DNA of 64,000 nucleotides from Candidatus Daviesbacteria bacterium. GTDB lineage: Bacteria > Patescibacteriota > Microgenomatia > Daviesbacterales > UBA10151. Made by a program: the position numbers and the translations under genes. This document shows, one piece after another, positions 3,330 to 63,868 of this stretch. How positions within the stretch are numbered: position 1 is the first letter of the stretch; the number at the start of each line of letters is the position of its first letter. The stretch is from NCBI GenBank assembly GCA_016187035.1, contig JACPKL010000010.1, forward strand, positions 26,014 through 90,013, written 5' to 3'. The notes beneath the pieces were generated by a model. It was not told the DNA's origin. It saw only the letters and a program-made list of their open reading frames with translations, and ran no database searches.

Positions 3330-3405
3330 AGCTTGATAAACGTAAAAACTTCCACCTTCGACGGAGAACCTTTCCTTTTTCTGACGAAAAACGTAAAATT
3401 ACATC

Positions 3406-12712: not shown

Positions 12713-12714
12713 CA

Positions 12715-26316: not shown

Positions 26317-26347
26317 TATCTTAAGTTCAGTAATTATCCTATAGTTG

Positions 26348-26418
26348 TCGGGGAAGAGAGAATCGAACTCTCGATATCGCACCCCCAGCGCGATGTGTTA
26401 CCACTATACCATTCCCCG
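26348..26418 (-). tRNA. tRNA-Pro (anticodon GGG), no encoded CCA
   Basis: The reverse complement is CGGGGAAUGGUAUAGUGGUAACACAUCGCGCUGGGGGUGCGAUAUCGAGAGUUCGAUUCUCUCUUCCCCGA. It has a 7-bp acceptor stem, a T-arm GAGAG/UUCGAUU/CUCUC and the anticodon loop CU-GGG-GG. Confidence 0.9.
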
Positions 26419-45955: not shown

Positions 45956-46264
45956 CTACATCTTAACTTCAATGTCAACACCTGCAGGAATCTCAAGGTG
46001 CATTAAAGAGTCTATGGTTTTTTGGGTGGGCTCAACAATGTCAACCATTCTTTTGTGGGTCCTAATTTCAAATGCTTCTCTGGCATTTTTATCAGTATGA
46101 GGAGATTTTAAAACTGTCATTCTTTCAGTCTTAGTAGGTAGGGGAATAGGACCAACTATTTTGGCTCCTGTTCTTAAAGCTGTATCCAAAAGAGAATCAC
46201 AGGTATTATCAAGTACCCTATGATCGTAACTTTTAAGTTTAACACGTATTCTGCCTCTTGGCAT
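45956..46264 (-). CDS. rpsJ: 30S ribosomal protein S10
   Basis: [14 protein letters not shown]...PLPTK...SPH.DK..REQFE-like blocks. Confidence 0.9.
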
Positions 46265-46301: not shown

Positions 46302-47486
46302 TTAGGCTATTATCTTGGTAATTACCCCGGCGCCAACTGTTTTACCGCCTTCTCTAACAGCAAATCTTAAACCTTCTTCCATCGCTACAGGTGTAATTAA
46401 TTTCCCCGTCACTTTAACAGTATCTCCTGGCATAGCCATTTCCACACCTTCAGGAAGTTGAACTTCACCAGTTACATCAGTGGTTCTAATATAGAATTGT
46501 GGTCTGTAACCTTTGAAAAATGGAGTATGTCTTCCTCCTTCTTCCTTAGATAAGATGTAAACTTCTGCTTCAAATTCAGAATGCGGAGTGATTGAGCCGG
46601 GTTTAGCAAGTACCTGACCTCTTTCAACATCATCCTTTTCAATACCTCTTAGTAAAATTCCTGCATTGTCTCCGGCCTGACCTTCATCAAGAAGTTTATG
46701 AAACATCTCAATACCTGTGACTACACTTTTCTTAGTTGATCTTATACCCACAATTTCTATCTCCTCATTAAGTTTAACTTTTCCTCTTTCAATTCTGCCT
46801 GTTACTACTGTTCCACGGCCTTTAATCGAGAATACATCTTCAACCGCCATCAAAAATGGCTTATCCACATCTCTTACTGGTGTGGGAATCCACTCATCAA
46901 CTTTAGCCATCAATTCTTCAATTGCTTTAATCGCTTCAGGATCACCATTCAAGGCTTTTAAGGCTGAGCCTCTAACTATTGGGGAATTTGGATCATAATT
47001 GTATTTCTTTAAAAGGTCTTTAATTTCTTCTTCTACTAAATCAATTAATTCTGGATCTGATACTTGATCAATTTTATTTAGGAAAACTACAATTGCTGGA
47101 ACTCCTACTTGGTAAGCAAGCAATAAATGCTCTCTTGTTTGAGGCATTGGACCGTCTGGAGCAGAAACAACCAAAATAGCACCATCGGTTTGAGCAGCAC
47201 CGGTAATCATATTCTTGATGTAATCTGCATGGCCTGGCATGTCAATATGGGCATAGTGCCTTTTTTCTGTTTCATATTCTTGGTGAGAAATATTAATGGT
47301 AATACCACGGGCTTTTTCTTCCGGAGCATTATCAATTTGGTCAACTGATCTTTTTTCTGCCATTCCTTTAGCAGCTAAAACACTGGTTATTGCAGCAGTT
47401 AAAGTAGTTTTACCATGGTCAACATGACCCATGGTACCAACGTTCACATGTGGTTTTGATCTGTCAAATTTTTTTGCCTCAGCCAT
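46302..47486 (-). CDS. tuf: elongation factor Tu
   Basis: [18 protein letters not shown] and NKID. 394 aa. Confidence 0.95.
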
Positions 47487-47498
47487 AATTTAGTCTTT

Positions 47499-47521
47499 AA
47501 AAACAGCGTTCTCTTACGCTG
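47499..47521 (-). terminator. hairpin plus U5 in the 75-nt spacer upstream of tuf
   Basis: The minus strand reads CAGCGtaagagaaCGCTG-TTTTT, 13 nt before the tuf ATG. Confidence 0.45.
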
Positions 47522-47529
47522 CCTTTAAT

Positions 47530-47558
47530 AATATACATAAATCTTACATAAAATGCAA
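47530..47558 (-). promoter_or_regulatory. candidate tuf promoter
   Basis: The minus strand reads TTGCAT-17 nt-TATATT, located upstream of the hairpin at 47499-47521. Confidence 0.4.
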
Positions 47559-47561
47559 TAG

Positions 47562-47783
47562 TTAAGTTAAAGGGGGGGGTTTTGGTTTAAGATAATTTGT
47601 TGTTAATCTTAAAGTTAAATCAGCTGCCCTTAATACACCTCCCATTAATGTATCATACTCATCTGGATCATCAGATGGCTCGGTTGTGTTTAGTCTTTGA
47701 AGCATCCTTACTGTTAGTAATTCCGCAGCTTCTATCAAAGGTGTTTCGATTGTCCCCGGAAATCGATCAGGGCTTAAAGCCAT
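47562..47783 (-). CDS. hypothetical small acidic protein between fusA and tuf
   Basis: The 73-aa ORF is co-directional with the operon: MALSPDRFPGTIETPLIEAAELLTVRMLQRL...DDPDEYDTLMGG... It ends KPKPPPLT across a C8 run (plus-strand G8 at 47572-47579). No recognisable family. Confidence 0.4.
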   Translation of the reverse strand: MALSPDRFPGTIETPLIEAAELLTVRMLQRLNTTEPSDDPDEYDTLMGGVLRAADLTLRLTTNYLKPKPPPLT

Positions 47784-47824
47784 ACTTTATAGAAATATCA
47801 TATTTAAAAAACAGTTGTCAACCA

Positions 47825-49999
47825 TTAGCGCTCAACCCGGCCGGTAAAGCCTGAGGACTCGACAATTTTTTGAGTAATATTTTGTGGAACCGGTTCATAA
47901 TGGTCTGCTTCCATATAATAAGTAGCCCTGCCCTGAGACATACTCCTGATAGCTGTAGCATATCCATGCATTTCAGCCAGAGGCACTAAGGCCAATACCA
48001 CCCTGGCATTTCCCCTTGACTCAGATGATAAAATCTGAGCTCTTTTTGAGGATAAATCACCAATAATCTCACCTAAAAATTCATCGGGAGTGGTTACTTC
48101 CACTTTCATTATTGGCTCAAGTAAAATCATATCTGCAATTTTGGCTGCCTCAGACAAGCCTAAAGAGGCTGCAATTTTAAAAGCTATCTCAGAGGAATCA
48201 ACATCATGAAAAGAACCGTCATAAACAGTCACTTTAATATCTGTAACAGGGAAGCCTGCTAAAATCCCTGTATCTTCTTTTTCAATCACTCCTTTTTCAA
48301 TTGGCGGTATAAACTCTCTTGGAATGGCTCCGCCAACCACCTCTGAAACAAATTCCCTGCCTTGCCCTCTTGGCAATGGTTCAATCTTCAAAAGACAATG
48401 TCCATATTGACCCCTGCCACCTGTCTGCCTGATATATTTACCCTCTCCTTCAGCATATTTAGTAATAGTCTCTTTATAAGCTACCTGCGGCTGGCCAACA
48501 TTAGCATCAACTTTAAACTCTCTTTTCATTCTATCTACTAAAATTTCCAGTTGTAATTCTCCCATGCCGGCAATAATAGTTTGGCCTGTTTCAGCATCAG
48601 ACTTAACCCTGAAAGTAGGATCTTCCTCAGCCAGTCTTTGTAAAGACAATCCCAGTCTCTCCTGATCTGATTTAGTTTTGGGTTCAATAGCCAAAGAAAT
48701 GACCGGATCTGGAAAAGTGATAGACTCTAAAATAATTGGCGAAGTTTCATCGCATAAAGTATCTCCGGTAATAGTATCTTTAAGCCCAACAGCTGCCACA
48801 ATTTCTCCGGCAAAAGCCTCTTCAATTTCTTCCCTGTCATTAGCATGCATTAAAAGCAGCCTGCCTACCCGTTCTTTAATTTGTTTGGTAGAGTTATAAA
48901 CATAAGAACCGCTCTTTAAAGTTCCTGAGTAAACTCTAATATAAGTTAATTTCCCCACATGAGGATCAACCTGAATTTTAAAAGCCAAAGCAGATAAAGA
49001 AGCTTTAGGATCTGTTTTCTCAATATCCTGGGGAGAAGGCAGATATTCCACCACACAATCTAACATTTTTTGGACACCTTTATTTCTTAGAGATGACCCT
49101 GCTAAAACTGGAACAATCTTACTCCCAATGACAGCTCTTCTTAAAGCAAGTTTCAACTCTTCAACGGACATATCTTGCCCGCCCAAGTATTTTTCCATTA
49201 AGATATCATCAGTACCGGCAATTTCTTCAACTAATTTTTCCCTGGCTGCTTTAACTTCTTCCGCCATATCAGCAGGAATTTCTACTTCATTAAATTTAGC
49301 GCCGGTATCACTTGTCCCGAGCGGACCTGTCCTGAGCGGACCTGTCCTGAGCGAAGTCGAAGGAGTCGAAGGAGTCGAAGGAGCCGAGGGATCACCTTCC
49401 CAAATATAGGCTTTTTCAGTCAGTAAATCTACCACACCTTTAAAATCATTTTCCCGTCCAATGGGTAAATTGTAGGCAATGGCATTGGCCCCTAACCTAT
49501 CCCTGGCAGACTGGATTGTAGCCTGAAAATCTGCACCCACCACATCCATTTTATTGGAAAAAGCAATCAAAGGCACATTGTATTTGTTAGCCTGCCTCCA
49601 GACAGTCTCTGTTTGAGACTGCACTCCTGAGGAAGAATCCAACACAATTACCGCACCATCTAATACTCTCAAAGACCTTTCCACCTCAGCAGTAAAATCT
49701 ACATGTCCGGGAGTATCAATTAAATTAATTCTATTTTCCAAAGACTCAAAAAGACCCTGTTTAACTGTCCAAAAGGCAGTAATTGCAGCAGATACAATGG
49801 TGATACCACGTTCCCTTTCCTGCTCCATCCAGTCAGTAGTAGTAGTTCCCTCGTCAATATCACCAATTTTATAAGTTCTGCCCGTATAAAAAAGAATTCT
49901 TTCAGTGGTGGTGGTCTTCCCTGCATCAATGTGAGCGATTATCCCAATGTTTCTAATCCTATCTAAGGGGAAATCTCTGTTAGTCTTTTGTAAGCCCAT
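47825..49999 (-). CDS. fusA: elongation factor G (with in-frame repeat insertion in the G' region)
   Basis: [20 protein letters not shown] and NKMD, with domains II-V present. 724 aa. Confidence 0.95.
49314..49393 (-). repeat. expanded copy of the GC-rich mini-repeat inserted in frame in fusA
   Basis: The plus strand is gtcccga-(gcggacctgtcctga)x2-gcgaa-(gtcgaagga)x3-gccgagggatc. It is read on the minus strand as [27 protein letters not shown]. Confidence 0.8.
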
Positions 50000-50221
50000 T
50001 TAATTTTTCTCCAATTCCTTAATAATCTTTTTTACCTGCTCAATCTGCACTCTTAAAGTTGTTGCATCCTCAATAGCCATAGAATAGGCTGCATTTTCAG
50101 ACAAATCCCCTTCTTGAGCAGCCAAGCCCTTTTTTTGCTGAACTGCAACCAGCTGCTCTTCCAGCTTTTTGAGGTTATCCTGCCACATTTTTAGTTTTTC
50201 TTGTTTTAAATTTTCGTCCAT
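50000..50221 (-). CDS. GreA/GreB N-terminal coiled-coil-only protein (no C-terminal globular domain)
   Basis: 73 aa. EGDLSENAAYSMAIED matches the Gre-factor finger tip (GDLSENAEY). The stop abuts the fusA ATG with no gap. Confidence 0.6.
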   Translation of the reverse strand: MDENLKQEKLKMWQDNLKKLEEQLVAVQQKKGLAAQEGDLSENAAYSMAIEDATTLRVQIEQVKKIIKELEKN

Positions 50222-50224
50222 ATC

Positions 50225-50249
50225 TAAAAAACCTCCCTCAAGGGAGGTC
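50225..50249 (-). terminator. rho-independent terminator downstream of the toxin gene; its 3' arm doubles as a GGGAGG SD-like element
   Basis: The minus strand reads ACCTCCCttgAGGGAGGT-TTTTT-agat-ATG(50221). Confidence 0.55.
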
Positions 50250-50314
50250 CCATTGGTAAATATTAAGTAATCCGATCCTAAAAGTCAAATACACCTATCC
50301 TTCAAAGTTTTGTT

Positions 50315-50581
50315 TTACTGGTAATGATCATTAATATCTACAACTTCTATCTCACCTACCTCAATCATACCAAATATGGCTCTATATTTGTGATCGATTC
50401 TAAATGAATATAGATTAAGATCTTTGGGTTCTAGTTTTTCTGTATTAAGAGAGGGATGGGAAATATTTTCTTCAAGTAATTTAATTTGTTTGGTGTATTT
50501 TTCACTTAAATTGCGCTTGGTCAAATATTTAGCTAGCCTTACTTTAAGAGGTTTTATCTTCATAAAAAGAAGAGTCTTCAA
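50315..50581 (-). CDS. RelE/ParE-superfamily type II toxin
   Basis: 88 aa. NISHPSLNTEKLEPKDLNLYSFRIDHKYRAIFGMIEVGEIEVVDINDHY fits the RelE/YafQ-like pattern (HPSL..+KL.....YS.RI...YRAIF......I.V..I..H). It overlaps the upstream RHH gene. An alternative start is Met7 at 50563. Confidence 0.65.
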   Translation of the reverse strand: MKTLLFMKIKPLKVRLAKYLTKRNLSEKYTKQIKLLEENISHPSLNTEKLEPKDLNLYSFRIDHKYRAIFGMIEVGEIEVVDINDHYQ

Positions 50582-50819
50582 GTCCTCGTATTATACTTTT
50601 AATGAACTTTTGGTTATATTTACCTGTTTTGAGCAGATCTGTTTCAACCTCTTCTAAGGGCTTTCTTACAAAGGATCTAAACTCAATTTCTCCGCTGGAG
50701 AAATATCTTCTTAGTAAACTTCTGATAAATTCAGAACGGGTTGCGAAACCCCGCCTTTTTGTCTCAGAATCAACGTTCTTTGCTATTTGATCTGGAAGAG
50801 AAATAGTGACGGTTGTCAT
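50544..50819 (-). CDS. ribbon-helix-helix (CopG/ParD-like) antitoxin
   Basis: Trimmed to MTTVTISLPDQIAKNVDSETKRRGFATRSEFIRSLLRRYF (ATG 50819), which has the classic RHH beta-strand plus two helices. Confidence 0.65.
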   Translation of the reverse strand: MTTVTISLPDQIAKNVDSETKRRGFATRSEFIRSLLRRYFSSGEIEFRSFVRKPLEEVETDLLKTGKYNQKFIKSIIRGLEDSSFYEDKTS

Positions 50820-50828
50820 ATTACTAAT

Positions 50829-50857
50829 ATTTAACAATATTTGTGAATTTTTGTCAA
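50829..50857 (-). promoter_or_regulatory. candidate promoter of the TA pair
   Basis: The minus strand reads TTGACA-17 nt-TTAAAT-attagtaat-ATG(50819). Confidence 0.45.
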
Positions 50858-50878
50858 GGTTTGGATAGATTCCAAAAG

Positions 50879-51409
50879 TCAACCCAACTGATAACTCCAT
50901 CCTGGTTGCCACTTAAATAGGGTTGTTGTCAAGGTTTCTAATGATACTCCTTTTATCCAATGCTCTAATCCAAATCGAGTGGCACGATGCCCAATAATCA
51001 TTACCTTTTTATCCTCATAATTTATCTTTAAATCATCCAAGAAATCCTTTATTCTTTTAGATGACTGTTCATAACTCTCACCATTCGGGAATGGTTCTGT
51101 TATATAATTAATCAGTTGGGGTTCCACTTCACTACTTGGATGCCTGGTTAAATCACCGTAATCACATTCCCTAAGTCTTGGATCTTTAATAATTGGAAAC
51201 TTTTTTCCAAAAGCAATTTCTGCGGTTTTGTATGACCTTTGTAAATCAGAGCAAAAGATAGTATCGAACTTTTGATCTTTATATCTTCTACCTAATTGTT
51301 TCGCTTGTTGCTCACCAAGTGATGAAAGCGTTATATCATTGTGTCCAGATGATAAGTAATTCTCATTATCCAAACTAGTAGCGTGGGTTTCAAAAATGAT
51401 TGTTATCAT
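50879..51409 (-). CDS. histidine phosphatase superfamily protein (PGAM-like) with non-canonical first motif
   Basis: 176 aa. SDLQRSYKTAEI and IIGHRATR fit the family. The N-terminal motif reads FETHATSLDN where RHGxT..N is expected (Arg to Thr, Gly to Ala). Confidence 0.6.
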   Translation of the reverse strand: MITIIFETHATSLDNENYLSSGHNDITLSSLGEQQAKQLGRRYKDQKFDTIFCSDLQRSYKTAEIAFGKKFPIIKDPRLRECDYGDLTRHPSSEVEPQLINYITEPFPNGESYEQSSKRIKDFLDDLKINYEDKKVMIIGHRATRFGLEHWIKGVSLETLTTTLFKWQPGWSYQLG

Positions 51410-51412
51410 ATA

Positions 51413-51441
51413 CTTGCTCTAATGATTCGTATCATCTTAAT
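51413..51441 (-). promoter_or_regulatory. copy 2 of the 28-nt palindrome-centred motif, 12 nt upstream of the phosphatase ATG
   Basis: cttgctctaATGATtCGTATCATcttaat, with one central mismatch in the palindrome. Confidence 0.55.
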
Positions 51442-51446
51442 AGATG

Positions 51447-51893
51447 CTAAAAAGCCTTTTTGTCTTTGGATTTTTTCTCAAGTTCTTTTTTTAAATATCT
51501 CCATGCCCCACTACCTTTTCCTCTGGTTGCTGGAGTTATTAATACTTGAGCAGTTTTGTTAAGAATCTCTTTTAATTTTTCATCTCTTAAAATTCTGCTT
51601 ACAGCCTTTTTATAACCATTACTCCCATATTTTATAGCATTATTAACCACAGCCACCGTTTGGAAACTGACATGCAAAACTTTATTTATTTCCCGATATT
51701 CATATCCTTGAGTTAAAAGGAAAGCGATAGCTAATCTTTTAGTTAGCATTATTCGTTCTGTAGGGGTAAGTAAATCACTAACAATTTCATCTGCATCTTG
51801 AGAATTTTTAATCCCAATTAAAGTCTTCGTAAATATTTCCCAACATCTGTCATAAACATCTTTGGAGATTGGATATTTTGAAACTTGGGTCAT
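51447..51893 (-). CDS. YerC/YecD-like TrpR-family DNA-binding protein
   Basis: 148 aa. LLTPTERIMLTKRLAIAFLLTQGYEYREINKVLHVSFQTVAVVNN matches the TrpR-related YerC pattern. Confidence 0.6.
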   Translation of the reverse strand: MTQVSKYPISKDVYDRCWEIFTKTLIGIKNSQDADEIVSDLLTPTERIMLTKRLAIAFLLTQGYEYREINKVLHVSFQTVAVVNNAIKYGSNGYKKAVSRILRDEKLKEILNKTAQVLITPATRGKGSGAWRYLKKELEKKSKDKKAF

Positions 51894-51921
51894 TTGCTTT
51901 GATGATACGTATCATCTTAAT
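51893..51921 (-). promoter_or_regulatory. copy 3 of the 28-nt palindrome-centred motif, abutting the yerC-like start codon
   Basis: caTTTGCTTTGATGATACGTATCATCTTAAT. On the minus strand, the TATCAT of the palindrome lies 8 nt upstream of the ATG. Confidence 0.55.
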
Positions 51922-51975
51922 AATAGTAAGAAAAATATACTATGTCAATAATTTTGAGTATTTTGATATTGGAGT

Positions 51976-52146
51976 TTATTTTTTACTTTCGGATTTTCTA
52001 AATAAAGCAACTGCAATTTCTGCATTTGATGCACCCTGCTGGCTTAAGATAAGGATATTTTCTGCAAGCTCCCTTACTGATTGGACAGTATTATACCCAC
52101 TTTCTGGTAGAATGTCATAGCAGGTTCTGGGGCAGTTCTTAATCCA
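51976..52146 (-). pseudogene. start-less reading frame encoding a truncated LuxR-type HTH remnant
   Basis: The frame -1 relative to ORF 52074..52367 reads ...SVRELAENILILSQQGASNAEIAVALFRKSESKK*. This matches G-x-SN-x-EIA-x2-L of LuxR/FixJ HTHs but stops before the recognition helix ends. There is no ATG/GTG/TTG start in the open frame. Confidence 0.35.
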
Positions 52147-52367
52147 TTAACTCCTTCTTGTCTAAGGTAAGCCTCTATTCCTTTTAGAATCTCACTTCCA
52201 GCAACAGCTGCATCTCCTTCATTTAGATCGTCTGGGGGAAACTTTGATAATTCTAAAGCCCTAGCAATTAAAGGATGGGATTGTCTATTGATTGGCCCAT
52301 TAGGAGATCTATGTTTAGCAACTTTTAGGGCAACAATTAGTCCCTCTACTTTTCTTTCTATTGGCAC
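52074..52367 (-). CDS. hypothetical protein (possibly degenerate)
   Basis: 97 aa. The C-terminal ...AMTFYQKVGI weakly recalls a GNAT C-terminal strand (A..FY.K.GF). No confident family. Confidence 0.35.
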   Translation of the reverse strand: MPIERKVEGLIVALKVAKHRSPNGPINRQSHPLIARALELSKFPPDDLNEGDAAVAGSEILKGIEAYLRQEGVNGLRTAPEPAMTFYQKVGIILSNQ

Positions 52368-52462
52368 TTCAACTTGGATTGGATCATCAAACCACTGTTG
52401 GAGTGTACTTAATTTGGTTTACTGCTCTGGCTAATCTTCTAGTGGCAGCAAAATCTATAGGA

Positions 52463-52939
52463 TCACCAACGGAAGTGGGAGAATGCACGATTAGCAGCAG
52501 CTTGCCGTTGAACATCTTCTTTCTTCTTGATAGCAGCTCCAGCGCTATTTGCTGCCTCCATTAATTCTTTGGCTAATTTCTCATTAAAAGTATGAAACTG
52601 CTTATTTGATCTAGACTTTGCTGCTGCTAAAATCCACCTGATTGCCAAGGCTTCTTTTCTATCACCTCTAACCTCTACTGGCACCTGATAAGATGCACCA
52701 CCTACTCTTCTGGGTCTAACCTCCATTTTAGGAGATACATTTTGGATAGCTTTTTCCAGGATAGTTACTGGCTCTTGTTTTGTTTGCTCTTTGATTACCT
52801 TTAAAGCACCGTAAACAAGATCTTGGGCAATAGATTTTTTACCATCCATCATTATTTTATTTATCATCCTGGAGACTAATCTGGATCCATAAAGAGGATC
52901 AGGTGATAACAATTTCTTTGGAGCTTTTTTACTTCTCAT
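52463..52939 (-). CDS. rpsG: 30S ribosomal protein S7
   Basis: 158 aa: DPLYGSRLVSRMINKIMMDGKKS... Confidence 0.9.
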   Translation of the reverse strand: MRSKKAPKKLLSPDPLYGSRLVSRMINKIMMDGKKSIAQDLVYGALKVIKEQTKQEPVTILEKAIQNVSPKMEVRPRRVGGASYQVPVEVRGDRKEALAIRWILAAAKSRSNKQFHTFNEKLAKELMEAANSAGAAIKKKEDVQRQAAANRAFSHFRW

Positions 52940-52942
52940 GTT

Positions 52943-53407
52943 TTAGGCTGCTGGTGTGGGTGTTACTTTAGGAGCAGCTGCTCTAGGAACAACCCCAGCA
53001 CCTCCTTTCTTAGTACCATATATGCTTCTACCTCTTTTTCTACCTACTACTCCGGCCAAATCCAGCTTGCCTCTAATTAAATGATATTTAACTCCAGGCA
53101 AATCTTTAACCCTGCCTCCCCGAACCAAAACTATACCATGTTCTGCTAAGCTGTGGCCTTCACCTTGGATATATGCTGTAACCTCTGTTCTGTTAGACAG
53201 CCTGACCCTGGCTACTTTTCTTAAAGCAGAGTTTGGTTTTTTAGGAGTCATAGTTTTGACTAAAGTAACTACACCCCTTTTTTGAGGGTTAAAATCTTGA
53301 GTATAATGTCTGTCTTTAGCATTAAAGCTACGACGCAGCGCAGTAGCTTTAATTTTTTTAGTCAGTCTTTTCCGACCTTTTCGAATTAATTGGTTAATTG
53401 TTGGCAT
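52943..53407 (-). CDS. rpsL: 30S ribosomal protein S12 (with Ala/Pro-rich C-terminal extension)
   Basis: [12 protein letters not shown]...[10 protein letters not shown]... Confidence 0.9.
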
Positions 53408-53410
53408 ATT

Positions 53411-56400
53411 TTATGATTCTATCTTAGCCCTTTCAGGACTGGTTGGTATTAAACGCCCAATTATAACATTCTCCTTTAATCCCACTAATCTATCAATCTT
53501 ACCTGACATAGCTGCATCTGATAAAACCGAGGTGGTTTCCTGGAATGATGCTGAAGACAAGAAACTCTCAGTCTGCAAAGATGCCCTGGTAATACCCAGG
53601 ATAATCACTTCTGCGGTAGCTGGTTCACCACCCCCTGCTAAAACTCGTTCATTCTCTTCCTCAAATCTTAATTTATCAATTACTTCTCCTGGTAACAGAT
53701 TAGTGTCACCTTGTGATTCAATTCTTACTTTATCAGACATTTTTCTAACAATTACTTCAAAATGCTTCTCGTTAATAGGCACACCTTGAGATTCATAAAC
53801 AGAACAGACTTCATCAACAATATATCGCTGAGCTGCTTGTAAACCTTGAGTCCGCAGTATTTCTTTTACATCAACATGCCCTGTTGCTAAAACTGTCCCA
53901 GCATCGATCAATTGATCCTCTCCCACTAGAAGAGTTGCTGTTGCGGGAATAACATATTCTCTTTCTTCGTGAGGTTTTTGGGTAGTCTTAACCCTAACTC
54001 TTATGCCTAGCTCTGTTTCGACAATAGAGATTTTACCAGCAATCTCTGCCAAAGGAGCTACCACTTTAGGCGTTCTAGCTTCAAACAGCTCTTCAACCCT
54101 AGGAAGTCCTTGAGTAATATCTAATCCCACAATACCTCCAGTATGAAAAGTACGCATAGTAAGCTGTGTGCCTGGCTCACCAATTGCTTGTGCAGCCACT
54201 ACTCCTACTGGGGTTCCTAATTTCACAAGCTCCCTTGTAGTTAAATCATACCCATAACAATAGCTGCATATGCCATATTTTGCCTCACAAGTCAATGGAG
54301 ATCGAGCCATCACGCTAGTCACACCTTCTTTAAGAAGTTTTTGAATAGTTTCCTCAGTTAATATTGTTCCCTCTTTAATTAATACTTTGCGACTACCTGG
54401 TTCTTTGATCTCTCCCAAAACCATTCTACCCAAAAGCTCTTCTCTGGCATGATTAAAGCTGCTTTTTGAGATAATGTATTCTAAACCAACCCTTGTCCCA
54501 CAATCCTCTATTCTGATTATCACATCATGTGCCACATCAACTAATCTTCTTGTTAAATAACCAGCATCTGCTGTTTTTAAAGCTTTATCAGCTACACCTT
54601 TTCTAGCGCCCCTAGCTGAGGTAAAGTATTCAAATACCGATAAACCTTGTCTATAATTTGACTTAGTCGGCAACTCAACTATTTTACCTGTTGGATCAGT
54701 AGATAATCCTCTCATAGCAGAAAGTTGCTTAGCTTGATCTCTTGAACCCCTAGCTCCAGCCTCTACCATCATCCTAATTGGGTTATCTGATCCTAAATGA
54801 TCCCAGGTAGCTGCTGATAAATCTTCTGTTGTCTTAATCCAAACCATTTGGGAGAGTTGTGATTTTTCTTGTGGAGTTATTAAACCTTTGATTACATTAG
54901 ATTCAATTTTTTGAATCTCCAACTCTGCCTCATCTAAATATCTTTGTTTATCAGGGACAATTTTAGCATCAAAAATAGAAATTGAAACCCCCGCAATAGT
55001 GGCTCCCCAAAAACCAATACTCTTGATATTATCAACTAATTCGGATACAGCTTCTTTATCCATCATATCCATAGCCTTTAATATAATGTCACGGATAGTT
55101 ACTCCTTTAATAGTCGAATTAAGAAATCTCATCTGAGATGGAAGCACTTGGTTAAATAAAATTCTACCAATTGATGTCTCAATAACTTCTTTGCCAATTC
55201 TAACTTGAATTCTTTGCTGGATTTTTACTTGCTTTACATGATAAGCTCTAATCGCATCCTCCTCGTTAGCAAAAAACTTTATCTTAGCAAAAGATGCTCT
55301 TTTCTCGCTTTCTTTTACCTCTGGAAGCGATGTAATATAGTAACAACCTAAAGCCATTTCTCTATTTGGCACAGTAATTGGTTGGGCATTAGCTGGACCA
55401 AAGATGTTTTCTCTTGCCAGCATTAAACTTTTTGCTTCCTCTTGGGCTTTGGCAGCAAGCGGAACATGAACTGCCATTTGGTCTCCGTCAAAATCAGCAT
55501 TAAATCCAGCACAGATACAAGGATGTATTTGAATCGCATGTCCATCTACCAATACAGGAAAAAATGCCTGAATACCTAATCTATGTAAAGTAGGGGCACG
55601 ATTAACTAAAATCGGATGGCCTTCTATAATCTCTTCTAGAATATCCCAAACCTCAGCAGAACGAGCTTCTAAAACATTTTTAGCCCCCTTAACATTAGAA
55701 GCTAAACCTCTGGCAATCATTTCCCTTAAAACAAATGGCTTAAACATTTCTAAAGCCATTTCTTTTGGCAAACCCACTTGGTTAAGTTTTAATCTTGGTC
55801 CAACCACAATCACAGATCTTCCTGAATAATCAACTCTTTTACCTAACAAGTTTTGTCTAAATCGACCTTGTTTTCCTCGAAGCATATCAGACAATGATCT
55901 CAAAACATGTGTCGTAGCTGGTCCACCCCTTCTAGATGTTCTTGAAGACGAATCTATTAATGAATCTACAGCTTCTTGTAACATTCTTTTTTCATTACGT
56001 AAAATAATTTCTGGAGCGCCTAAGTTTATTAATCTATTTAAGCGGTTATTTCTGTTAATTACTCTTCTGTATAAATCATTCAAGTCAGAAGTGGCAAAAC
56101 GCCCTCCAGGCAGTTGCACCATTGGACGAAGGTCCGGAGGCAAAACTGGTAGAACTCGCAAGATTAACCATTCTGGTTGGACTTGAGCAGAACGCATTCC
56201 TTCAATTAATCTCAACCTCTTAGTTGATTTAATATGTTTTTGGCCAGTTGATTTTCTAATTTCCTCCCGAAGAGTAGCTGACAGCTTATCCAAATCTAAT
56301 TTTTGTAAAACCTCAAGCAAGCTTTCAGCTCCCATTCCTACCTTAACAAAATCAGATACTCCATATTCTGACAATTTATAATATTCTTCCTCTGATAATA

Positions 56401-57121
56401 ACTTTAAAGGAGTAACACTTTTGACTAGATCTGACACAGCTTTAAATATTCCTTCAATTTGACCAACTTCAACCACTTGGTTATCTCTTAGTTTTTGAAT
56501 CTCATGTCTGTTTTTTATACTTAGCTCCTGAGATTCCAATTCAAACTTCTCTTTATCTAGTCTTTTTTTCAAATCAGTCAAATCTTTTTTCAACTGCTCT
56601 TCTAATCCTTTAATGCTTTTATCCAAATTAACCTTTGATTGTGCAAGCTTACTTGCCAAATCTTTCCCCAGTTTTTCTAAAGCAGCTCCTTTTTTTGTAG
56701 AATCAATACTAATAACTAAATAGGAAGCAAAATAAACCACAGCTTCTAAATTCTTAGGAGAAATATCTAAAATTAAGGATAATTTCGAAGGAGCGCCTTT
56801 GACAAACCAGGAATGAGCAACAGGTGAAGCCAAACTAATATGTCCCATTCTCTCGCGTCTAACTTTATTTTGAGTAACTTCAACACCGCATTTATCACAA
56901 ATTACCCCTCTAAATCTGATTCTCTTATATTTTCCACAATAACACTCATAATCTTTAGTGGGGCCGAAGATGTTCTCTGAAAAAAGTCCATCTTTCTCAG
57001 CTTTCAGGGTTCTATAGTTTATAGTTTCAGGCTTGGTAACCTCGCCAAAAGACCAGCTGCGGATTTGTTCTGGACTAGCTACTGTAAGTTTTAAAGCTTC
57101 AAAATCTAATAAATCATTCAT
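53411..57121 (-). CDS. rpoC: DNA-directed RNA polymerase subunit beta'
   Basis: 1236 aa with a zinc-binding CxC..CxxC, the NADFDGD active site and the trigger-loop region. Confidence 0.95.
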   Translation of the reverse strand: MNDLLDFEALKLTVASPEQIRSWSFGEVTKPETINYRTLKAEKDGLFSENIFGPTKDYECYCGKYKRIRFRGVICDKCGVEVTQNKVRRERMGHISLASPVAHSWFVKGAPSKLSLILDISPKNLEAVVYFASYLVISIDSTKKGAALEKLGKDLASKLAQSKVNLDKSIKGLEEQLKKDLTDLKKRLDKEKFELESQELSIKNRHEIQKLRDNQVVEVGQIEGIFKAVSDLVKSVTPLKLLSEEEYYKLSEYGVSDFVKVGMGAESLLEVLQKLDLDKLSATLREEIRKSTGQKHIKSTKRLRLIEGMRSAQVQPEWLILRVLPVLPPDLRPMVQLPGGRFATSDLNDLYRRVINRNNRLNRLINLGAPEIILRNEKRMLQEAVDSLIDSSSRTSRRGGPATTHVLRSLSDMLRGKQGRFRQNLLGKRVDYSGRSVIVVGPRLKLNQVGLPKEMALEMFKPFVLREMIARGLASNVKGAKNVLEARSAEVWDILEEIIEGHPILVNRAPTLHRLGIQAFFPVLVDGHAIQIHPCICAGFNADFDGDQMAVHVPLAAKAQEEAKSLMLARENIFGPANAQPITVPNREMALGCYYITSLPEVKESEKRASFAKIKFFANEEDAIRAYHVKQVKIQQRIQVRIGKEVIETSIGRILFNQVLPSQMRFLNSTIKGVTIRDIILKAMDMMDKEAVSELVDNIKSIGFWGATIAGVSISIFDAKIVPDKQRYLDEAELEIQKIESNVIKGLITPQEKSQLSQMVWIKTTEDLSAATWDHLGSDNPIRMMVEAGARGSRDQAKQLSAMRGLSTDPTGKIVELPTKSNYRQGLSVFEYFTSARGARKGVADKALKTADAGYLTRRLVDVAHDVIIRIEDCGTRVGLEYIISKSSFNHAREELLGRMVLGEIKEPGSRKVLIKEGTILTEETIQKLLKEGVTSVMARSPLTCEAKYGICSYCYGYDLTTRELVKLGTPVGVVAAQAIGEPGTQLTMRTFHTGGIVGLDITQGLPRVEELFEARTPKVVAPLAEIAGKISIVETELGIRVRVKTTQKPHEEREYVIPATATLLVGEDQLIDAGTVLATGHVDVKEILRTQGLQAAQRYIVDEVCSVYESQGVPINEKHFEVIVRKMSDKVRIESQGDTNLLPGEVIDKLRFEEENERVLAGGGEPATAEVIILGITRASLQTESFLSSASFQETTSVLSDAAMSGKIDRLVGLKENVIIGRLIPTSPERAKIES

Positions 57122-57153: not shown

Positions 57154-60100
57154 CTACTTCTTTTCCATCTCACTAGCATCTATCACTTCAAAATTACTTG
57201 ATTCAGCTTCTAATTCTGATTCGTTGGCAGTAGGCTGCATTTCTAAAGTTTGCTCCAATTGAGCAACTTCCTGTTTTATCTCTGCCTTTTCCTCAGTTTC
57301 CTGAGTCTGGATCAATTTAGCTCCAATAGTGTCTACTGATAATCCTAATGCCTGAAGCTCTTTCACTAACACTTTAAACGATTCAGGAATTAAAGCCTGA
57401 GGAATTTCAATCCCCTTAACGATTGCCTCAAAAGCTTTAGCGCGTCCAACTACATCATCACTTTTAAGAGTTAACATTTCTTGTAGGATATGCGCTGCAC
57501 CATATGCTTCAAGCGCCCAGACTTCCATCTCTCCTAATCTTTGTCCGCCCATTTGGGCTTTTCCGCCTAGGGGTTGTTGAGTAACCAATGAATATGGACC
57601 AGTTGAGCGGGCATGGATTTTTTCTTCCACCATGTGGATTAATTTCAAAATGTAATTTCTGCCAACCACAATAGTTCTATCAAAAGGTTCACCAGTTTTT
57701 CCGTTAATTAATTTAACTTTACCATCAACTGGTAAATTAGCTTTTTTAAGCTCTTCAACCAACTTTTCCTCGGATAGCTTCTCAAAAACTGGCGCAGCTA
57801 CGTGATAACCTAATCTGGTGGCTGCAAATCCCCAATGAGTTTCTAAAAGTTGTCCCAGATTCATCCTTGATAGAACTGATAAAGGTGAGATGATAATATC
57901 AACTGGAGTACCGTCCTCTAAATGAGGCATGTCTGCAATAGGCACAATTTTTGAGATGACTCCTTTGTTTCCATGTCTGCCTGCTAGCTTATCGCCTTCG
58001 GTCACTTTTCTGATTTGAGCTACTTTAACTTTAATCCTCATTAAGATTCCTGTATCCAACTCATCTCCTTCTTCTCGGGATAGAATTTGTACTCCGATCA
58101 CAGTACCTCTTTCGCCGTGAGGAATCCTCAAAGAAGTATCTCTGATCTCTTTAGCTTTTTCTCCAAAGATAGCACGAAGCAACCTTTCTTCTGCAGTTAA
58201 TTCTGTTTCACCTTTTGGTTGCACTTTACCAACCAAAATATCATTTGGTCCAACCTCTGCACCAATTCTGACTATTCCTCTTTCATCTAAATTAGCCAAA
58301 GATTCTTCTGAAACATTCGGAATGTCGCGGGTTAATTCTTCAGGTCCTAACTTAGTTTCTACTACATCTATCTCATATTCTTCAATATGAATACTTGTTA
58401 AAAGATCCTCTTTGACTAATCTATCTGAAATGACAATGGCATCCTCGTATCCTAATCCCTCAAAGCTCATATAAGCAATCAGCAGGTTTTGGCCTAAGGC
58501 TAACTCTCCATTCTTTGTGGCAGCTCCATCAATCAACAGATCTCCTTTTTTGACCTTAGCTCCAATTTCTACCACTCCTTTTTGGGAATAACAAGTACCT
58601 TGAGGTGAATGAACAAATTTTTTAATTTCATATTTATATTCATTTTTTACAGCTTTCAAGATTAATTTTTTCCCATCAACATAAGTAACTACCCCATCCT
58701 CAGGTGCTTTTACTATCCTACCCATATTTTCTGCCACAATTTTTTCCATCCCTGTTCCTACCACAGGAGCAGAAGGAAGCAATAATGGAACTGCTTGGCA
58801 CTGCATCTGAGTACCCATTAAAGCCCTGTTAGCATCATCATTGGCTAAAAATGGAATAAGCGAAGCGGAAATTCCAAAAATCTGTTGAGGAGATATATCA
58901 ATTAAAGAAATATCTGAAGCTTTACCTTCATAGAAAACACCTTGATAACGGGTAGGTACCCGATCAGGAATGATATTGCCTCTATCATCAATTTCCACTG
59001 TAGCCTCAGTAATATGGAAATTCTCTTCATCATCAGCTGATAAGTAAATTATCTCATCTGTTACTTTATTTTTTCCTTTTTGCTGTATTATTTTTCTATA
59101 GGGAGTTTCCAAAAATCCGTATTCATTTATTCTGCAGAAAAGCGCCAAATAGGTAACCAATCCAATATTTTGCCCTTCTGGTGATCTGATTGGATCAATT
59201 CTGCCATACTGAGAATGATTAATATCTCTGACTGAGAAAGAAGCCCGATCTCTAGTTATTCCTCCAACACCCATAACAGACAATCTTCTTAAGTGGTCTA
59301 ATTCAGACAAAGGATTAACCTGATCTAAAATGCTAGAAAGTTGAGAGGAACGGAAAAATTCATTAATTGCCGCAATTACTGGCTTGGCATTGATTAAACC
59401 CCCAGGGGTCACTTCTTGATCCTGAGCCGTTAAACTCATTCTCTCTTTAATAATTCGTTCAAGTCTTAATACTCCAATCCTAAAAGCGTTTTGCTGTACT
59501 AATTCTCCAGCACATCTAACACGCCTGTTTGCTAAATGATCAATATCGTCTAATTTACCTTCTCTATTACTTAATCTAATTAGATATTTCAAAGCAGCGA
59601 TTATATCTGTTTTAGTTAAAATCCAATTCTCTTCAGTATTTGATAAGTCTAGATTTAATCTTTTATTAATTTTAAAACGGCCTACCTTGGTTAAATTATA
59701 TCGACGAGAGGCAAAAAACATGCCTTCGAGCAAAGCTTTAGCATTATCTAAAACAACCGGATCTCCTGGCCTCATTTTTCTAAAAATCTCAAGTAAAGCT
59801 TCCTCGCTATTTTCAGTTGGATCTTTAGATAAAGTAACCTCAATGAATTTGTTCTCACCATTATCAACATCCTTAAACTGCTCAATTATTGCATCAGTTT
59901 CAGAAACTCCAATTGCTCGAAGAAAGGTAGTTGCAGCAAATTTTCTTCTTCTATCAATCTTGGCAGTTAAAACACCTGTTCTAGAAACAGAAAACTCTAA
60001 CCAAGAACCTCGATAAGGACGGATTTCTGCAGAATATAATCTTTTACCAGTAATTGGATCATCCATTGCTGAAAAAAATACACCAGGTGAACGAACTAAT

Positions 60101-60507
60101 TGATTAATAATTACTCTTTCAACACCGTTAATAATGAATGTACCTTTATCAGTCATTTGTGGTATGTCTCCCAAAAACACTTCCTGCAAACTTTTCTGAC
60201 CTGTTTGTTTATTAATTAGAGTCGCTTCTATTTTCAGAGGAGCATCAAAGGTAACTCCTTTTTCTCTAGCTTGCTCAGCAGTATATTTACCTTTACCGAA
60301 ATAAAAGGACCCTAATTCTAGGGTCCAATTTTTTCCTGTAAAGTCCTCCACAGGAGAAATTTCAGCAAGGACTTCTTTAATACCTTCTTTAATAAACCAA
60401 TTATATGAATCTAGTTGAATTTGGATTAAATTCAATTGAGGAACCAAGTTTGGTGATTTACTCCAATATTTACGTTCGTTTTTCTGTATATCTAATTTCG
60501 CTGACAT
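57154..60507 (-). CDS. rpoB: DNA-directed RNA polymerase subunit beta
   Basis: 1117 aa. A Rif-region-like FFGSSQLSQF variant (FFRSSQLSSILDQ), GRHGNKGV and GGQRLGEMEVWALEAYGA. Confidence 0.95.
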   Translation of the reverse strand: MSAKLDIQKNERKYWSKSPNLVPQLNLIQIQLDSYNWFIKEGIKEVLAEISPVEDFTGKNWTLELGSFYFGKGKYTAEQAREKGVTFDAPLKIEATLINKQTGQKSLQEVFLGDIPQMTDKGTFIINGVERVIINQLVRSPGVFFSAMDDPITGKRLYSAEIRPYRGSWLEFSVSRTGVLTAKIDRRRKFAATTFLRAIGVSETDAIIEQFKDVDNGENKFIEVTLSKDPTENSEEALLEIFRKMRPGDPVVLDNAKALLEGMFFASRRYNLTKVGRFKINKRLNLDLSNTEENWILTKTDIIAALKYLIRLSNREGKLDDIDHLANRRVRCAGELVQQNAFRIGVLRLERIIKERMSLTAQDQEVTPGGLINAKPVIAAINEFFRSSQLSSILDQVNPLSELDHLRRLSVMGVGGITRDRASFSVRDINHSQYGRIDPIRSPEGQNIGLVTYLALFCRINEYGFLETPYRKIIQQKGKNKVTDEIIYLSADDEENFHITEATVEIDDRGNIIPDRVPTRYQGVFYEGKASDISLIDISPQQIFGISASLIPFLANDDANRALMGTQMQCQAVPLLLPSAPVVGTGMEKIVAENMGRIVKAPEDGVVTYVDGKKLILKAVKNEYKYEIKKFVHSPQGTCYSQKGVVEIGAKVKKGDLLIDGAATKNGELALGQNLLIAYMSFEGLGYEDAIVISDRLVKEDLLTSIHIEEYEIDVVETKLGPEELTRDIPNVSEESLANLDERGIVRIGAEVGPNDILVGKVQPKGETELTAEERLLRAIFGEKAKEIRDTSLRIPHGERGTVIGVQILSREEGDELDTGILMRIKVKVAQIRKVTEGDKLAGRHGNKGVISKIVPIADMPHLEDGTPVDIIISPLSVLSRMNLGQLLETHWGFAATRLGYHVAAPVFEKLSEEKLVEELKKANLPVDGKVKLINGKTGEPFDRTIVVGRNYILKLIHMVEEKIHARSTGPYSLVTQQPLGGKAQMGGQRLGEMEVWALEAYGAAHILQEMLTLKSDDVVGRAKAFEAIVKGIEIPQALIPESFKVLVKELQALGLSVDTIGAKLIQTQETEEKAEIKQEVAQLEQTLEMQPTANESELEAESSNFEVIDASEMEKK

Positions 60508-62166: not shown

Positions 62167-62538
62167 TTATAGGCAAGTATCGCCAAAATATTTTCTTGCT
62201 ATTTGTTTATCTTTTTTTATTTGCGTTATCAGCTTATCAACACTGTGGAATTTTTTATTTTCCCTGATCTTTTTTAAAAGTTTTACCGTAATCCACTGAT
62301 TGTAAATATTTTTATCAAAGTCCAAAATATAAGTTTCAGCCTGGTATTTTTTTTCATTAAAAGTTTCAGCTTTACCTATAAAAGTTAGGGCAGGATAAAT
62401 AGATCTACTTAGTTTGATTTGAGAGATGTATATCCCTTCAGGAATATTTTTAGTTAAATTAATATTAGCTGTAGGAAAACCCAACTTTTTCCCTCTTTGT
62501 TGATGTTTTCGGACTTTCCCCCAAAATTTATACCTCAT
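62167..62538 (-). CDS. monofunctional riboflavin kinase (RibF C-terminal domain type)
   Basis: 123 aa: GKVRKHQQRGKKLGFPTANINL...YPALTFIG. No FAD-synthetase domain. Confidence 0.75.
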   Translation of the reverse strand: MRYKFWGKVRKHQQRGKKLGFPTANINLTKNIPEGIYISQIKLSRSIYPALTFIGKAETFNEKKYQAETYILDFDKNIYNQWITVKLLKKIRENKKFHSVDKLITQIKKDKQIARKYFGDTCL

Positions 62539-63494: not shown

Positions 63495-63868
63495 CTTGAA
63501 TCTAACCAATCTTGAAGAATTATAGCAGCTGCAGTAGCATCATTTTTACGCCGTTTTTCTTTAGAAATGTTTGACTCAATCATTTGCATAGTTGCCTTCT
63601 GAGAAGATAATGTCTCATCGAAAGTTAATACATCTAACCCCAGTTTTTGTAAGGCTTTCACAAAACCTAATACCGCCTGGCTCATCTTCCCTTCTGGTAA
63701 ACCAACAATTATTTGATCAAACTTCTCCTGCCGTACTAATTCTCCAATTTGCATTACAGCATCTTTGAAAGATCTAACTTCAATTATTTTAAAAGGAGAA
63801 GTAAAACTACCCTCAGAAGTTGCCAAACCAACTCTTTTTAATCCAAAATCAACTCCTAAATACCTCAT
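63491..63868 (-). CDS. ruvX: putative pre-16S rRNA nuclease / Holliday junction resolvase-like YqgF (RuvX)
   Basis: 125 aa, MRYLGVDFGLKRVGLATSEG..., in the canonical position upstream of mltG. Confidence 0.85.
   Translation of the reverse strand: MRYLGVDFGLKRVGLATSEGSFTSPFKIIEVRSFKDAVMQIGELVRQEKFDQIIVGLPEGKMSQAVLGFVKALQKLGLDVLTFDETLSSQKATMQMIESNISKEKRRKNDATAAAIILQDWLDSR

Follow-up and report, generated by a model that had tools for sequence, protein, structure and literature searches.

The genes rpsL, rpsG, fusA and tuf follow each other in the near-universal str operon, and the question raised by the locus described here is what it means that this order is broken in Candidatus Daviesbacteria bacterium (contig JACPKL010000010.1). 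In the 64,000-nt stretch of this contig that we have analyzed, called the window in the following, the minus-strand order is rpoB, rpoC, rpsL, rpsG, a gap of 2,463 nt (50000-52462), fusA, tuf and rpsJ. An initial annotation, made from the letters alone, had rightly noted an interruption of about 2.4 kb, and had taken it to be a single accessory insert, old or decayed, whose genes could be coupled to the transcription of the translation factors. Here, we compare the interval with the corresponding loci of related genomes. On the evidence of these comparisons, the gap is not one decayed island. It consists of a conserved core, in which a short Gre-like gene (called mini-Gre here) with its own promoter and leader hairpin is fixed to fusA, and of a variable cargo slot, the contents of which have different histories. 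We consider this account, including the roles that are proposed below for its components, to be probable. The structure of the locus (core, slot, toxin-antitoxin cassette inserted with a duplication, operators in pairs) is shown by the comparisons, and the action of mini-Gre in the secondary channel, insulation by the hairpin and DNA binding by the repressor are proposals.

For the comparison, 80 loci were fetched from species-representative genomes with ribosomal protein S7 as the anchor, and the window proteins were located in them by tblastn. The closest S7 relatives (62-79% identity) are nearly all metagenome-assembled genomes (MAGs) of Candidatus Daviesbacteria, the remaining ones being unclassified or evidently mislabelled MAGs with the same locus architecture. 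The outgroup set is made up of 34 loci from Woesebacteria, Woykebacteria, other lineages of the candidate phyla radiation (CPR), Firmicutes and others. A second sample consists of 44 metagenome contig loci anchored on mini-Gre, 41 of which extend far enough for fusA to be read.

Mini-Gre was found directly 5′ of fusA in 41 of the 41 rpsG-anchored loci of the Daviesbacteria clade that reach fusA, and likewise in all 41 informative loci of the metagenome sample, while it occurs in none of the 34 outgroup loci. The distance between its stop codon and the fusA start is at most 16 nt in most loci, and in the window the two genes abut, fusA starting at the next base. Two distant relatives of mini-Gre, which came from an exhaustive profile search, also precede fusA, with rpsG and one cargo gene on their other side. 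The outgroup gaps between rpsG and fusA are mostly 8-214 nt long, and the open reading frames (ORFs) inside the larger ones are not Gre-like. Within the clade, the distance from rpsG to mini-Gre ranges from 17 nt to 5.1 kb (5,136 nt). The synteny comparison that the initial annotation had called for thus gives different answers for different genes: the position is conserved for mini-Gre, partly so for a phosphatase gene discussed below, and not for the toxin-antitoxin (TA) pair or the 97-aa ORF orf97.

The description of mini-Gre as an ORF with only the coiled coil of GreA was correct, as the match to GreA_GreB_N is above the curated cutoff (Table 1). The protein ends at residue 73 and does not contain the C-terminal globular domain (PF01272). 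It is under strong purifying selection, since the median dN/dS is 0.10 (941 pairs), and 32 of the 73 alignment columns are invariant among 33 diverse members. The invariant block K30-K31-G32...E37-G38-D39-L40-S41-E42-N43-A44-A45-Y46 includes the tip motif GDLSENAAY, which is of the type D-x-x-E-N-x-x-Y. In Gre factors, D, E, N and Y at the same spacing have been assigned roles in Mg2+ coordination and in the contact with backtracked RNA, and D39, E42, N43 and Y46 of mini-Gre have the spacing of D43, E46, N47 and Y50 in the Mycobacterium tuberculosis Gre (PMC3132773). An AlphaFold 2 model of mini-Gre is a two-helix hairpin (residues 3-35 and 44-72, pLDDT 88) that overlays E. coli GreA (1grj) with 1.3 Angstrom over 60 residues. 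It should be stressed that the fold alone is no evidence for the identity of the protein, because helical hairpins are too generic: in the fold search GreA came third, every E-value was above 0.1, and generic helical hairpins scored equally.

When a profile of the mini-Gre family was compared with 1.84 billion representative proteins, 40 matches were obtained at E < 1e-3. About 30 of these are 48-126 aa long, and only about nine full-length GreAs reach this threshold. The family members listed have a length of ~70-109 aa, and the named ones are all annotated as "hypothetical protein" and come from Daviesbacteria. Our literature search found no account of the family. As judged from these searches, mini-Gre is a lineage-wide, previously undescribed gene and a clade-defining addition to the str cluster.

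What could such a protein do? The N-terminal domain of Gre factors has the nucleolytic and anti-arrest activities, and the C-terminal domain binds the β′ coiled coil (PMC3132773; PMC4598747). Mini-Gre shares the N-terminal antiparallel coiled coil with GreA/GreB (PF03449 plus PF01272), but it has 73 instead of ~158 aa, it is devoid of the C-terminal globular domain, its gene is fixed directly 5′ of fusA, and its sequence has diverged to a large extent. In the textbook account, the C-terminal domain is needed to keep the factor on RNA polymerase. By analogy, it is most likely that mini-Gre is a secondary-channel factor of RNA polymerase without the usual anchoring domain. It would enter the secondary channel and there stimulate transcript cleavage or compete with other channel factors, and a high level of expression, linked to that of EF-G, would make up for the low affinity of mini-Gre. 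TraR, a truncated DksA homologue of conjugative plasmids, is a precedent: it is a shortened representative of a family that binds in the channel, has ~70 aa and still acts on RNA polymerase. However, TraR keeps the zinc-finger globular part of DksA, whereas mini-Gre keeps only the coiled coil, and the two belong to separate families. Secondary-channel factors, to which DksA, Gfh1 and Rnk also belong, have been reviewed (PMC4598747).

Three points speak against this assignment. Without the C-terminal domain, the known anchor on RNA polymerase is gone, and binding in the channel is an extrapolation from the Gre factors. Furthermore, a full-length GreA may also be encoded in the genomes that carry mini-Gre, although no match to one was found in the 64-kb window or in the 84 fetched loci. 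Finally, the strict linkage to fusA fits a role in translation equally well. In this last case, mini-Gre would be a partner of EF-G or the ribosome, either as a stoichiometric partner or in translation coupling, and the Gre-like tip would have been co-opted. The invariable position next to fusA and the missing RNA polymerase-anchoring domain are in line with such a role, as are two divergent proteins, P0257 and P0271, which have lost the D-x-x-E tip (e.g. ...TNLGDDSALQSL...) and yet keep the position 5′ of fusA. On the other hand, a tip with the exact D, E, N and Y in all 33 sequences of the main family is hard to explain without a function at the RNA polymerase active site, and in a cluster that runs rpoB-rpoC-rpsL-rpsG-...-fusA the adjacency fits a partner of RNA polymerase just as well. 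We also count against the EF-G partnership that no partner of EF-G with such a coiled coil is known to us, and we regard it as quite improbable. With the channel factor as the preferred assignment, the question that mini-Gre poses is whether the Gre coiled coil can work alone at high dosage or works with another partner.

Some further observations on Gre-like and related proteins can be recorded here. A homologue search that started from the nearest full-length GreA gave 15 proteins, and two of their contigs, L168 and L169, are CPR-like. No link to Daviesbacteria could be made for either: L168 shares with the window only the YceG gene (~43% identity), and L169 shares nothing detectable. The full-length greA of L168 is located two genes from yceG. 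In the window, ruvX, mltG (YceG) and a riboflavin-kinase gene stand in a row at 62167-63868, and there is no greA at the corresponding place. In a distant relative (L167, 4835-5246), two tandem small ORFs that resemble GreA_N precede fusA. Among the outgroup loci, the Woykebacteria locus L047 has a 3.3-kb gap between rpsG and fusA with a 131-aa ORF (9218-9613), in which a DksA/TraR-type C4 zinc-finger motif (CSSCG...CVPCS) was identified by eye only. If the ORF is indeed of this type, the rpsG-fusA interval of this locus would also hold a gene for a factor of the secondary-channel type.

The second component of the core (50288-50000) is the promoter of mini-Gre and fusA, which is of the sigma-70 type, together with the hairpin that follows it. 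The 15-mer TTGACTTTTAGGATC (50288-50274) includes the -35 hexamer (50288-50283), and after 8 more spacer nucleotides comes the -10 hexamer TAATAT (50265-50260). An alignment of 34 loci gives the order TTGACTTTTAGGATC, 8-10 nt, TAATAT, 8-10 nt, a GC-rich stem of 7-10 bp and a run of U5-8. No variation is seen in the TTGACTT columns, in TA..AT of the -10 hexamer or in the spacing of 17 nt, and the hairpin with its U-run is present in all 34 leaders. In the window, the hairpin starts 9 nt past the -10 hexamer, that is ~2-4 nt into the predicted transcript (about +3), and its 3′ arm (GGGAGG) at the same time provides the Shine-Dalgarno sequence, GGAGG, at a distance of 10 nt from the mini-Gre ATG. 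The stem is CCUCCC/GGGAGG in one form, CCCCGC/GCGGGG in L025 and UCCCAA/UUGGGA in L046, and compensatory changes are seen in L025, L039, L042 and L046. An automatic scan of 71 loci detected both promoter and hairpin in 56, one of the two in 7 and neither in 8. Six of the latter eight loci are compact, with 17-24 nt from rpsG to mini-Gre, and cargo-free. In gaps longer than 170 nt, the element is always present, at least in part. Promoter, hairpin and mini-Gre together are thus a clade-wide unit fixed to fusA. The intrinsic terminator that had been annotated here is real as far as the GC-rich stem and the U-run are concerned, but it lies 3′ of a conserved promoter and is not simply the terminator of the TA pair.

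The hairpin would stop transcripts that arrive from rpoBC-rpsLG and the cargo, and on transcripts that start at the conserved promoter it would be a 5′-terminal stem-loop or a partial attenuator. It is important to note the difficulties of this proposal. In folding, the hairpin by itself has only a modest advantage over shuffled sequence (z = -1.9), and its roles as terminator, stabiliser and attenuator are inseparable in silico. Moreover, a terminator-like hairpin 3′ of a promoter should also stop the promoter's own transcripts, so that one has to assume either a leaky hairpin or an error in the predicted start site.

Another option is that the hairpin is a Gre-responsive attenuator, which would set the output of mini-Gre and fusA by premature termination. 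The precedent is the E. coli greA gene, where some two-thirds of the transcripts that start at strong promoters end at a terminator in the leader, and where GreA autoregulates through this leader, known as GraL (PMC2836576, PMC6829880). Both leaders have a promoter and then, within tens of nucleotides, a terminator-like hairpin before a Gre-family gene, and the canonical stem and U5-8 after the promoter in all the aligned leaders would suit this function. However, the mini-Gre hairpin is located at about +3, it has no sequence similarity to GraL, a search of the region against Rfam, GraL among its families, gave no match, and the element is missing from the six compact loci. In addition, tuf, though different in sequence, is built in the same way: 6-9 nt after a conserved promoter of its own (TTGCAT, 17 nt, TATATT) a hairpin begins, and a U-rich tract and then the ATG come next. 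This suggests a general 5′ untranslated region (UTR) design for highly expressed genes. A general 5′ design is more likely than Gre-specific attenuation because tuf shares this promoter-hairpin-ATG layout, and we think of the attenuator as possible but rather unlikely.

The parallel with tuf extends to the spacer upstream. Upstream of the tuf promoter, the fusA-tuf spacer varies from ~15 nt to 3.3 kb among the relatives, and in the window it is 338 nt long (47487-47824). It contains an ORF, orf73 (47562-47783), for which there is no homologue anywhere in the related loci. We infer that the str cluster of the Daviesbacteria clade is divided into separately promoted units. With a promoter of its own for mini-Gre-fusA, as for tuf, DNA inserted in the slot should not starve the essential genes, and in our reading the separate promoters make both spacers insertion-tolerant. 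The locus would in this way be an example of a near-universal operon that has been broken up, in a reduced genome, into units with separate promoters, and of how the neutral spacers between these units turn into hot spots for accessory genes.

These results allow the idea of an island to be assessed. According to it, one old, decaying island sits in an intact str operon, the GreA-like ORF is a remnant, and the hairpin is the terminator of the island. There is indeed no recombinase in the gap, orf97 and the HTH-like (helix-turn-helix) frame look degenerate, the GreA-like ORF is without half of a normal GreA, and the corresponding outgroup gaps are mostly short. However, the supposed remnant is present in every clade member sampled, with a low dN/dS and an invariant catalytic tip, and the promoter and hairpin are conserved alongside it, so that for mini-Gre, promoter and hairpin the sequence comparisons have, in our judgment, already refuted the idea. 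The remaining content varies by genome and has at least three separate histories. As a whole, the single island is scarcely credible. Protein identities of 62-87% argue also against a single mobile element that has spread recently. What stands of the accessory insert is that most of the interrupting DNA is variable between relatives; mini-Gre and the hairpin are not island content. In place of one old insert, we find layers, namely a recurrent TrpR-phosphatase module, a recent TA cassette and a unique left segment.

The layers emerge directly from the nucleotide comparison of the cargo slot, which in the window extends from 52462 to 50289. The first 535 nt (52462-51928) are unique to the window strain. 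The segment 51927-50868, with an operator, trpR, a second operator and the phosphatase gene hisP, has homologous counterparts in L011, L035 and L067, and its part from hisP onward in many others. The segment ~50867-50297, with the antitoxin and toxin genes, is again unique to the window strain, and at ~50297-50291 homology resumes and continues through promoter, hairpin and mini-Gre into fusA. Among the relatives, the slot ORFs fall into 61 clusters, mostly singletons, with families such as GNAT acetyltransferases, GIY-YIG nuclease, Sua5/YrdC, SDR, HAD hydrolases, NUDIX and DegV, and with a Gp49/HigB-like toxin and HTH antitoxin in L016 and L043. The commonest occupant is the histidine phosphatase, found in 22 of 71 loci and as pseudogene fragments in others, while the TrpR-like gene occurs in 8 loci, counting the window. 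The slot contents are ordinary accessory genes, and since mini-Gre-fusA appears to be separately promoted, lineages can gain and lose unrelated genes there. The absence of a visible recombinase had been noted before, and family profile scans agree with it: no integrase, recombinase or transposase was detected in the window gap, and no recombinase among 20 cargo-cluster representatives scanned from the relatives.

The suggested coupling of the cargo to the transcription of the translation factors is unlikely. The trpR gene has its own promoter-like site and operator, hisP has its own operator, and the mini-Gre promoter with its terminator-like hairpin separates the cargo from fusA.

In the unique left segment, the weak ORF of 97 aa is present as described, but as a doubtful gene with a GTG start: it matches no family, and no tblastn or blastn match was found in 120+ related loci. 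The start-less frame next to it, previously called a truncated LuxR-type HTH, could not be upheld, the best Pfam match being HTH_38 at E = 0.03 (14 bits, where the cutoff is 27). A different small ORF recurs among the relatives. It is GC-rich, 60-113 aa long, has a loose "IEALxRMxP" motif and adjoins the mini-Gre promoter in ~12 loci (L006, L007, L009, L015-L018, L028, L034, L041, L043, L067), but not in the window, and it could be a coding sequence or a structured RNA. Both orf97 and orf73 were considered as members of this promoter-adjacent family, and neither matches it.

The TA cassette is located at the promoter end of the slot. The annotated pair stands in part, as the ribbon-helix-helix (RHH) antitoxin is above its cutoff and the toxin family gives only sub-threshold matches: HigB 18.1, YoeB 17.2 and ParE 17.5 bits in Pfam (all below cutoff, E = 0.004-0.006), TIGR02116 with 21.1 against 51.8 (E = 2.7e-4), and the PDB entry of YoeB 7v5y (E = 0.0015). 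The pair has several features of type II RHH-RelE/YoeB modules, with the antitoxin first, a 20-nt overlap with the toxin gene, sizes of 91 and 82 aa, an RHH antitoxin and a YoeB-like ...DHYQ C-terminus. It differs from them in that the toxin is below every curated threshold, a point against its assignment, and in that the cassette is inside a promoter within the str cluster. The antitoxin has no homologue in any related locus, and no relatives of either protein were found in viral contigs.

The borders of the cassette indicate how it may have arrived. Nucleotide homology to the relatives breaks at 50868-50874 and resumes at ~50291-50297. At the left border lies a degenerate copy of the promoter 15-mer, identical to the intact copy 594 nt downstream in 13 of 15 nt, and it overlaps the hisP stop codon. 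In L014, L026, L035 and L053, the hisP stop is within or directly beside the TTGACT of the intact promoter. As the degenerate copy keeps this position relative to the hisP stop and the intact copy lies downstream, the TA cassette entered the -35/spacer block and duplicated the 15-mer, to judge from these alignments. The insertion of the ~580-bp RHH/YoeB-like cassette would be the most recent event in the slot. Perfect 16- and 19-nt duplications likewise flank promoter-proximal cargo in L011 and L041, bracketing 4.8 kb in the former and the gene of a 554-aa surface protein in the latter. No direct repeat flanks the whole 2.4 kb. Candidate mechanisms for the duplication are a Campbell-type insertion by way of microhomology, a long target-site duplication and the action of a recombinase in trans.

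The last of these candidates can be extended to the proposal that TTGACTTTTAGGATC is the attachment site of a trans-acting site-specific recombinase, or of cassette exchange, and the source of most of the cargo. Three independent loci (the window, L011 and L041) have different cargo within the same 15-19 nt flanks, two of the pairs being perfect. With up to one mismatch, the 15-mer occurs only in the rpsG-mini-Gre interval in ~1.5 Mb of related sequence, and with up to two mismatches the only matches elsewhere are seven scattered ones with two mismatches. No analogous duplication is seen at the tuf promoter (0/40 loci). Against this, there are no recombinase genes, attC-like elements or terminal inverted repeats, and selection that keeps only those insertions which regenerate the -35 block would mimic site specificity. 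The duplication is furthermore limited to 3 of the 52 cargo-bearing loci (gaps >250 nt), and because of this it cannot explain most cargo; this small number and the lack of a visible enzyme also weigh on our own account of the cassette. An attachment site is in our view unlikely. The slot resembles integration hot spots such as tRNA/tmRNA genes and the integron attI in its fixed position, in its lineage-variable cargo with TA modules and small enzymes, and in that the newest cargo adjoins a conserved short sequence that is sometimes duplicated. It differs from them in having no integrase, attC-like element or tRNA, in lying inside the rpoBC-str cluster, and in that the short sequence is itself part of the promoter of an essential gene, namely its -35/spacer block. 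A more far-reaching combination, which we find doubtful, is that the anchor-less 73-aa coiled coil has replaced or supplemented Gre with a dosage tied to EF-G, as a minimal channel factor or as a link between RNA polymerase and the ribosome/EF-G, and that in addition the 15-mer is a dedicated landing site for recombinase-less cassettes within the genome's most conserved gene cluster.

Another layer of the slot is the pair trpR-hisP, which by sequence comparison is a recurrent cargo module. The regulator had been annotated as YerC/TrpR-like, and its Trp_repressor match is above the cutoff, while on the TIGR02531 YerC/YecD model it scores 39.7 against 42.2. PDB matches are 3frw, 3g1c and 3kor, all "putative Trp repressor" entries. 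The trpR promoter consists of TTGACA (51948-51943), a 17-nt spacer and TATTAT (51925-51920), and it is followed by the palindrome GATGATACGTATCATC at 51916-51901, termed operator O1. A 28-nt palindromic motif at the 5′ ends of two genes had been reported. The repeat is real, with a length of 29 nt (51414-51442 and 51894-51922, 26/29 identical, 16-nt palindromic core), but its copies are in promoter/5′ UTR sequence upstream of the start codons.

Palindromes of the type ATGAT-N4-ATCAT are found in the trpR loci of the window, L011, L035, L067, L111, L120 and the 5′-truncated L123. Where the 5′ end of trpR is present, in the window and in six other loci, the upstream palindrome overlaps the region just past the trpR -10 hexamer. 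A second palindrome lies 3′ of trpR in all the loci that carry the gene, as far as their sequences extend, and in most of them it directly precedes hisP. In L111 it precedes a short extra ORF ahead of hisP, and in L120, which has no hisP there, a HAD-type hydrolase (3153-3788). The two palindromes match within a genome and differ between genomes, that is they co-vary, and hisP in loci without trpR has no palindrome. The TrpR-like repressor would bind the 14-16-bp palindrome at its own promoter and before hisP and thereby control both genes. As a HAD hydrolase takes the place of hisP behind the L120 operator, the controlled function seems to be phosphatase activity, and the HAD gene looks like a non-orthologous replacement of the regulated phosphatase. 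The system is similar to YerC/YecD in the Trp_repressor fold and in the palindrome that overlaps its own promoter just past the -10 hexamer. It differs in ~45 extra C-terminal residues of the window regulator, which is just under the curated cutoff, and in that its target is not a trp gene but one for a phosphatase, of the histidine type or, in L120, of the HAD type. Repressor, operator and phosphatase would form a regulon, defined by comparative genomics, for an uncharacterised regulator family, and also for an atypical type of histidine phosphatase, which is Arg-less and found widely among CPR bacteria.

The histidine phosphatase with the non-canonical THA motif was correctly recognized. It has 2,935 homologues, and in all 120 listed ones the Arg of RHG is replaced, by A, S, T or in one case V. 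The motif E-x-H-x-x is present in all 120, almost always as E[AST]H[AGS]T, with the catalytic H9 conserved, and by eye the alignment retains the second Arg, the Glu and the second His. The identity is ~70% even to a protein from Buchananbacteria (Parcubacteria), a value that points either to strong constraint or to lateral spread inside the CPR.

The coordinates of all the features are collected in Table 1. An assembly artefact is unlikely because independent assemblies agree: the whole arrangement from rpsG to fusA is identical in three independent Logan assemblies, and the part from hisP through fusA in a fourth. The mini-Gre (locus tag HYW41_04215) and hisP proteins have NCBI entries as Candidatus Daviesbacteria, the longest contig being 176 kb.

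Table 1. Position and identification of the features of the rpsG-fusA interval and its surroundings (window coordinates).
Feature	Position	Strand	Basis or remark
rpoB	57154-60507	-	ORF list and family profile searches
rpoC	53411-57121	-	ORF list and family profile searches
rpsL	52943-53407	-	ORF list and family profile searches
rpsG (ribosomal protein S7), upstream gap border	52463-52939	-	Pfam Ribosomal_S7 3e-58; TIGR01029 2e-58
orf97, doubtful ORF, GTG start	52074-52367	-	inside the strain-unique 51928-52462
Start-less frame, faint HTH resemblance, unsupported as a gene	51976-52146	-	best Pfam match HTH_38
trpR promoter and operator O1	51901-51948	-	promoter scan score 11/12
TrpR/YerC-like regulator, 148 aa	51447-51893	-	Pfam Trp_repressor (PF01371) 57.5 bits vs cutoff 27, 1.5e-15
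Operator O2 (AATGATTCGTATCATC), 12 nt 5′ of the hisP ATG	51421-51436	-	repeat search and locus comparison
Histidine phosphatase (hisP), 176 aa, THA instead of RHG	50879-51409	-	His_Phos_1 E = 1e-30
Degenerate left 15-mer copy TTGACTTTTGGAATC, overlapping the hisP stop codon	50868-50882	-	left cassette border
RHH (CopG-type) antitoxin, 91 aa	50544-50819	-	RHH_1 30.9 bits vs cutoff 20.5
RelE/YoeB-like toxin candidate, 82 aa, C-terminus ...DHYQ	50315-50563	-	sub-threshold matches
mini-Gre-fusA promoter	50260-50288	-	promoter scan and alignment of 34 loci
Leader hairpin and U6	50226-50251	-	core stem ACCUCCC/GGGAGGU; -14.3 kcal/mol
mini-Gre, 73 aa, GreA_GreB_N only	50000-50221	-	GreA_GreB_N (PF03449) 31.8 bits vs cutoff 24.5, 1.7e-7
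fusA (EF-G), downstream gap border, ATG at 49999	47825-49999	-	TIGR00484 1.6e-300
tuf	46302-47486	-	ORF list and family profile searches
rpsJ	45956-46264	-	ORF list and family profile searches

A check of the composition for foreign origin, another of the earlier suggestions, gave no deviation for the gap insert, which has 32-37% GC against a window mean of 35.1%. PADLOC defence models gave no meaningful match. Rfam had no match in the gap, in a window scan at the gathering threshold or in a permissive scan of 49900-52600, GraL and ribosomal leaders being among the families covered. The sole RNA genes detected by Rfam and ARAGORN across the window are the bacterial class A RNase P RNA (108 bits, 12449-12715) and a tRNA-Pro(GGG) at 26347-26418. 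Finally, the EF-G of the window has a 27-aa low-complexity insertion (49313-49391) encoded by 15-nt and 9-nt tandem repeats. The insertion is absent in the co-occurring strain L004, which is identical upstream, and in most relatives, and some have an 8-aa version.

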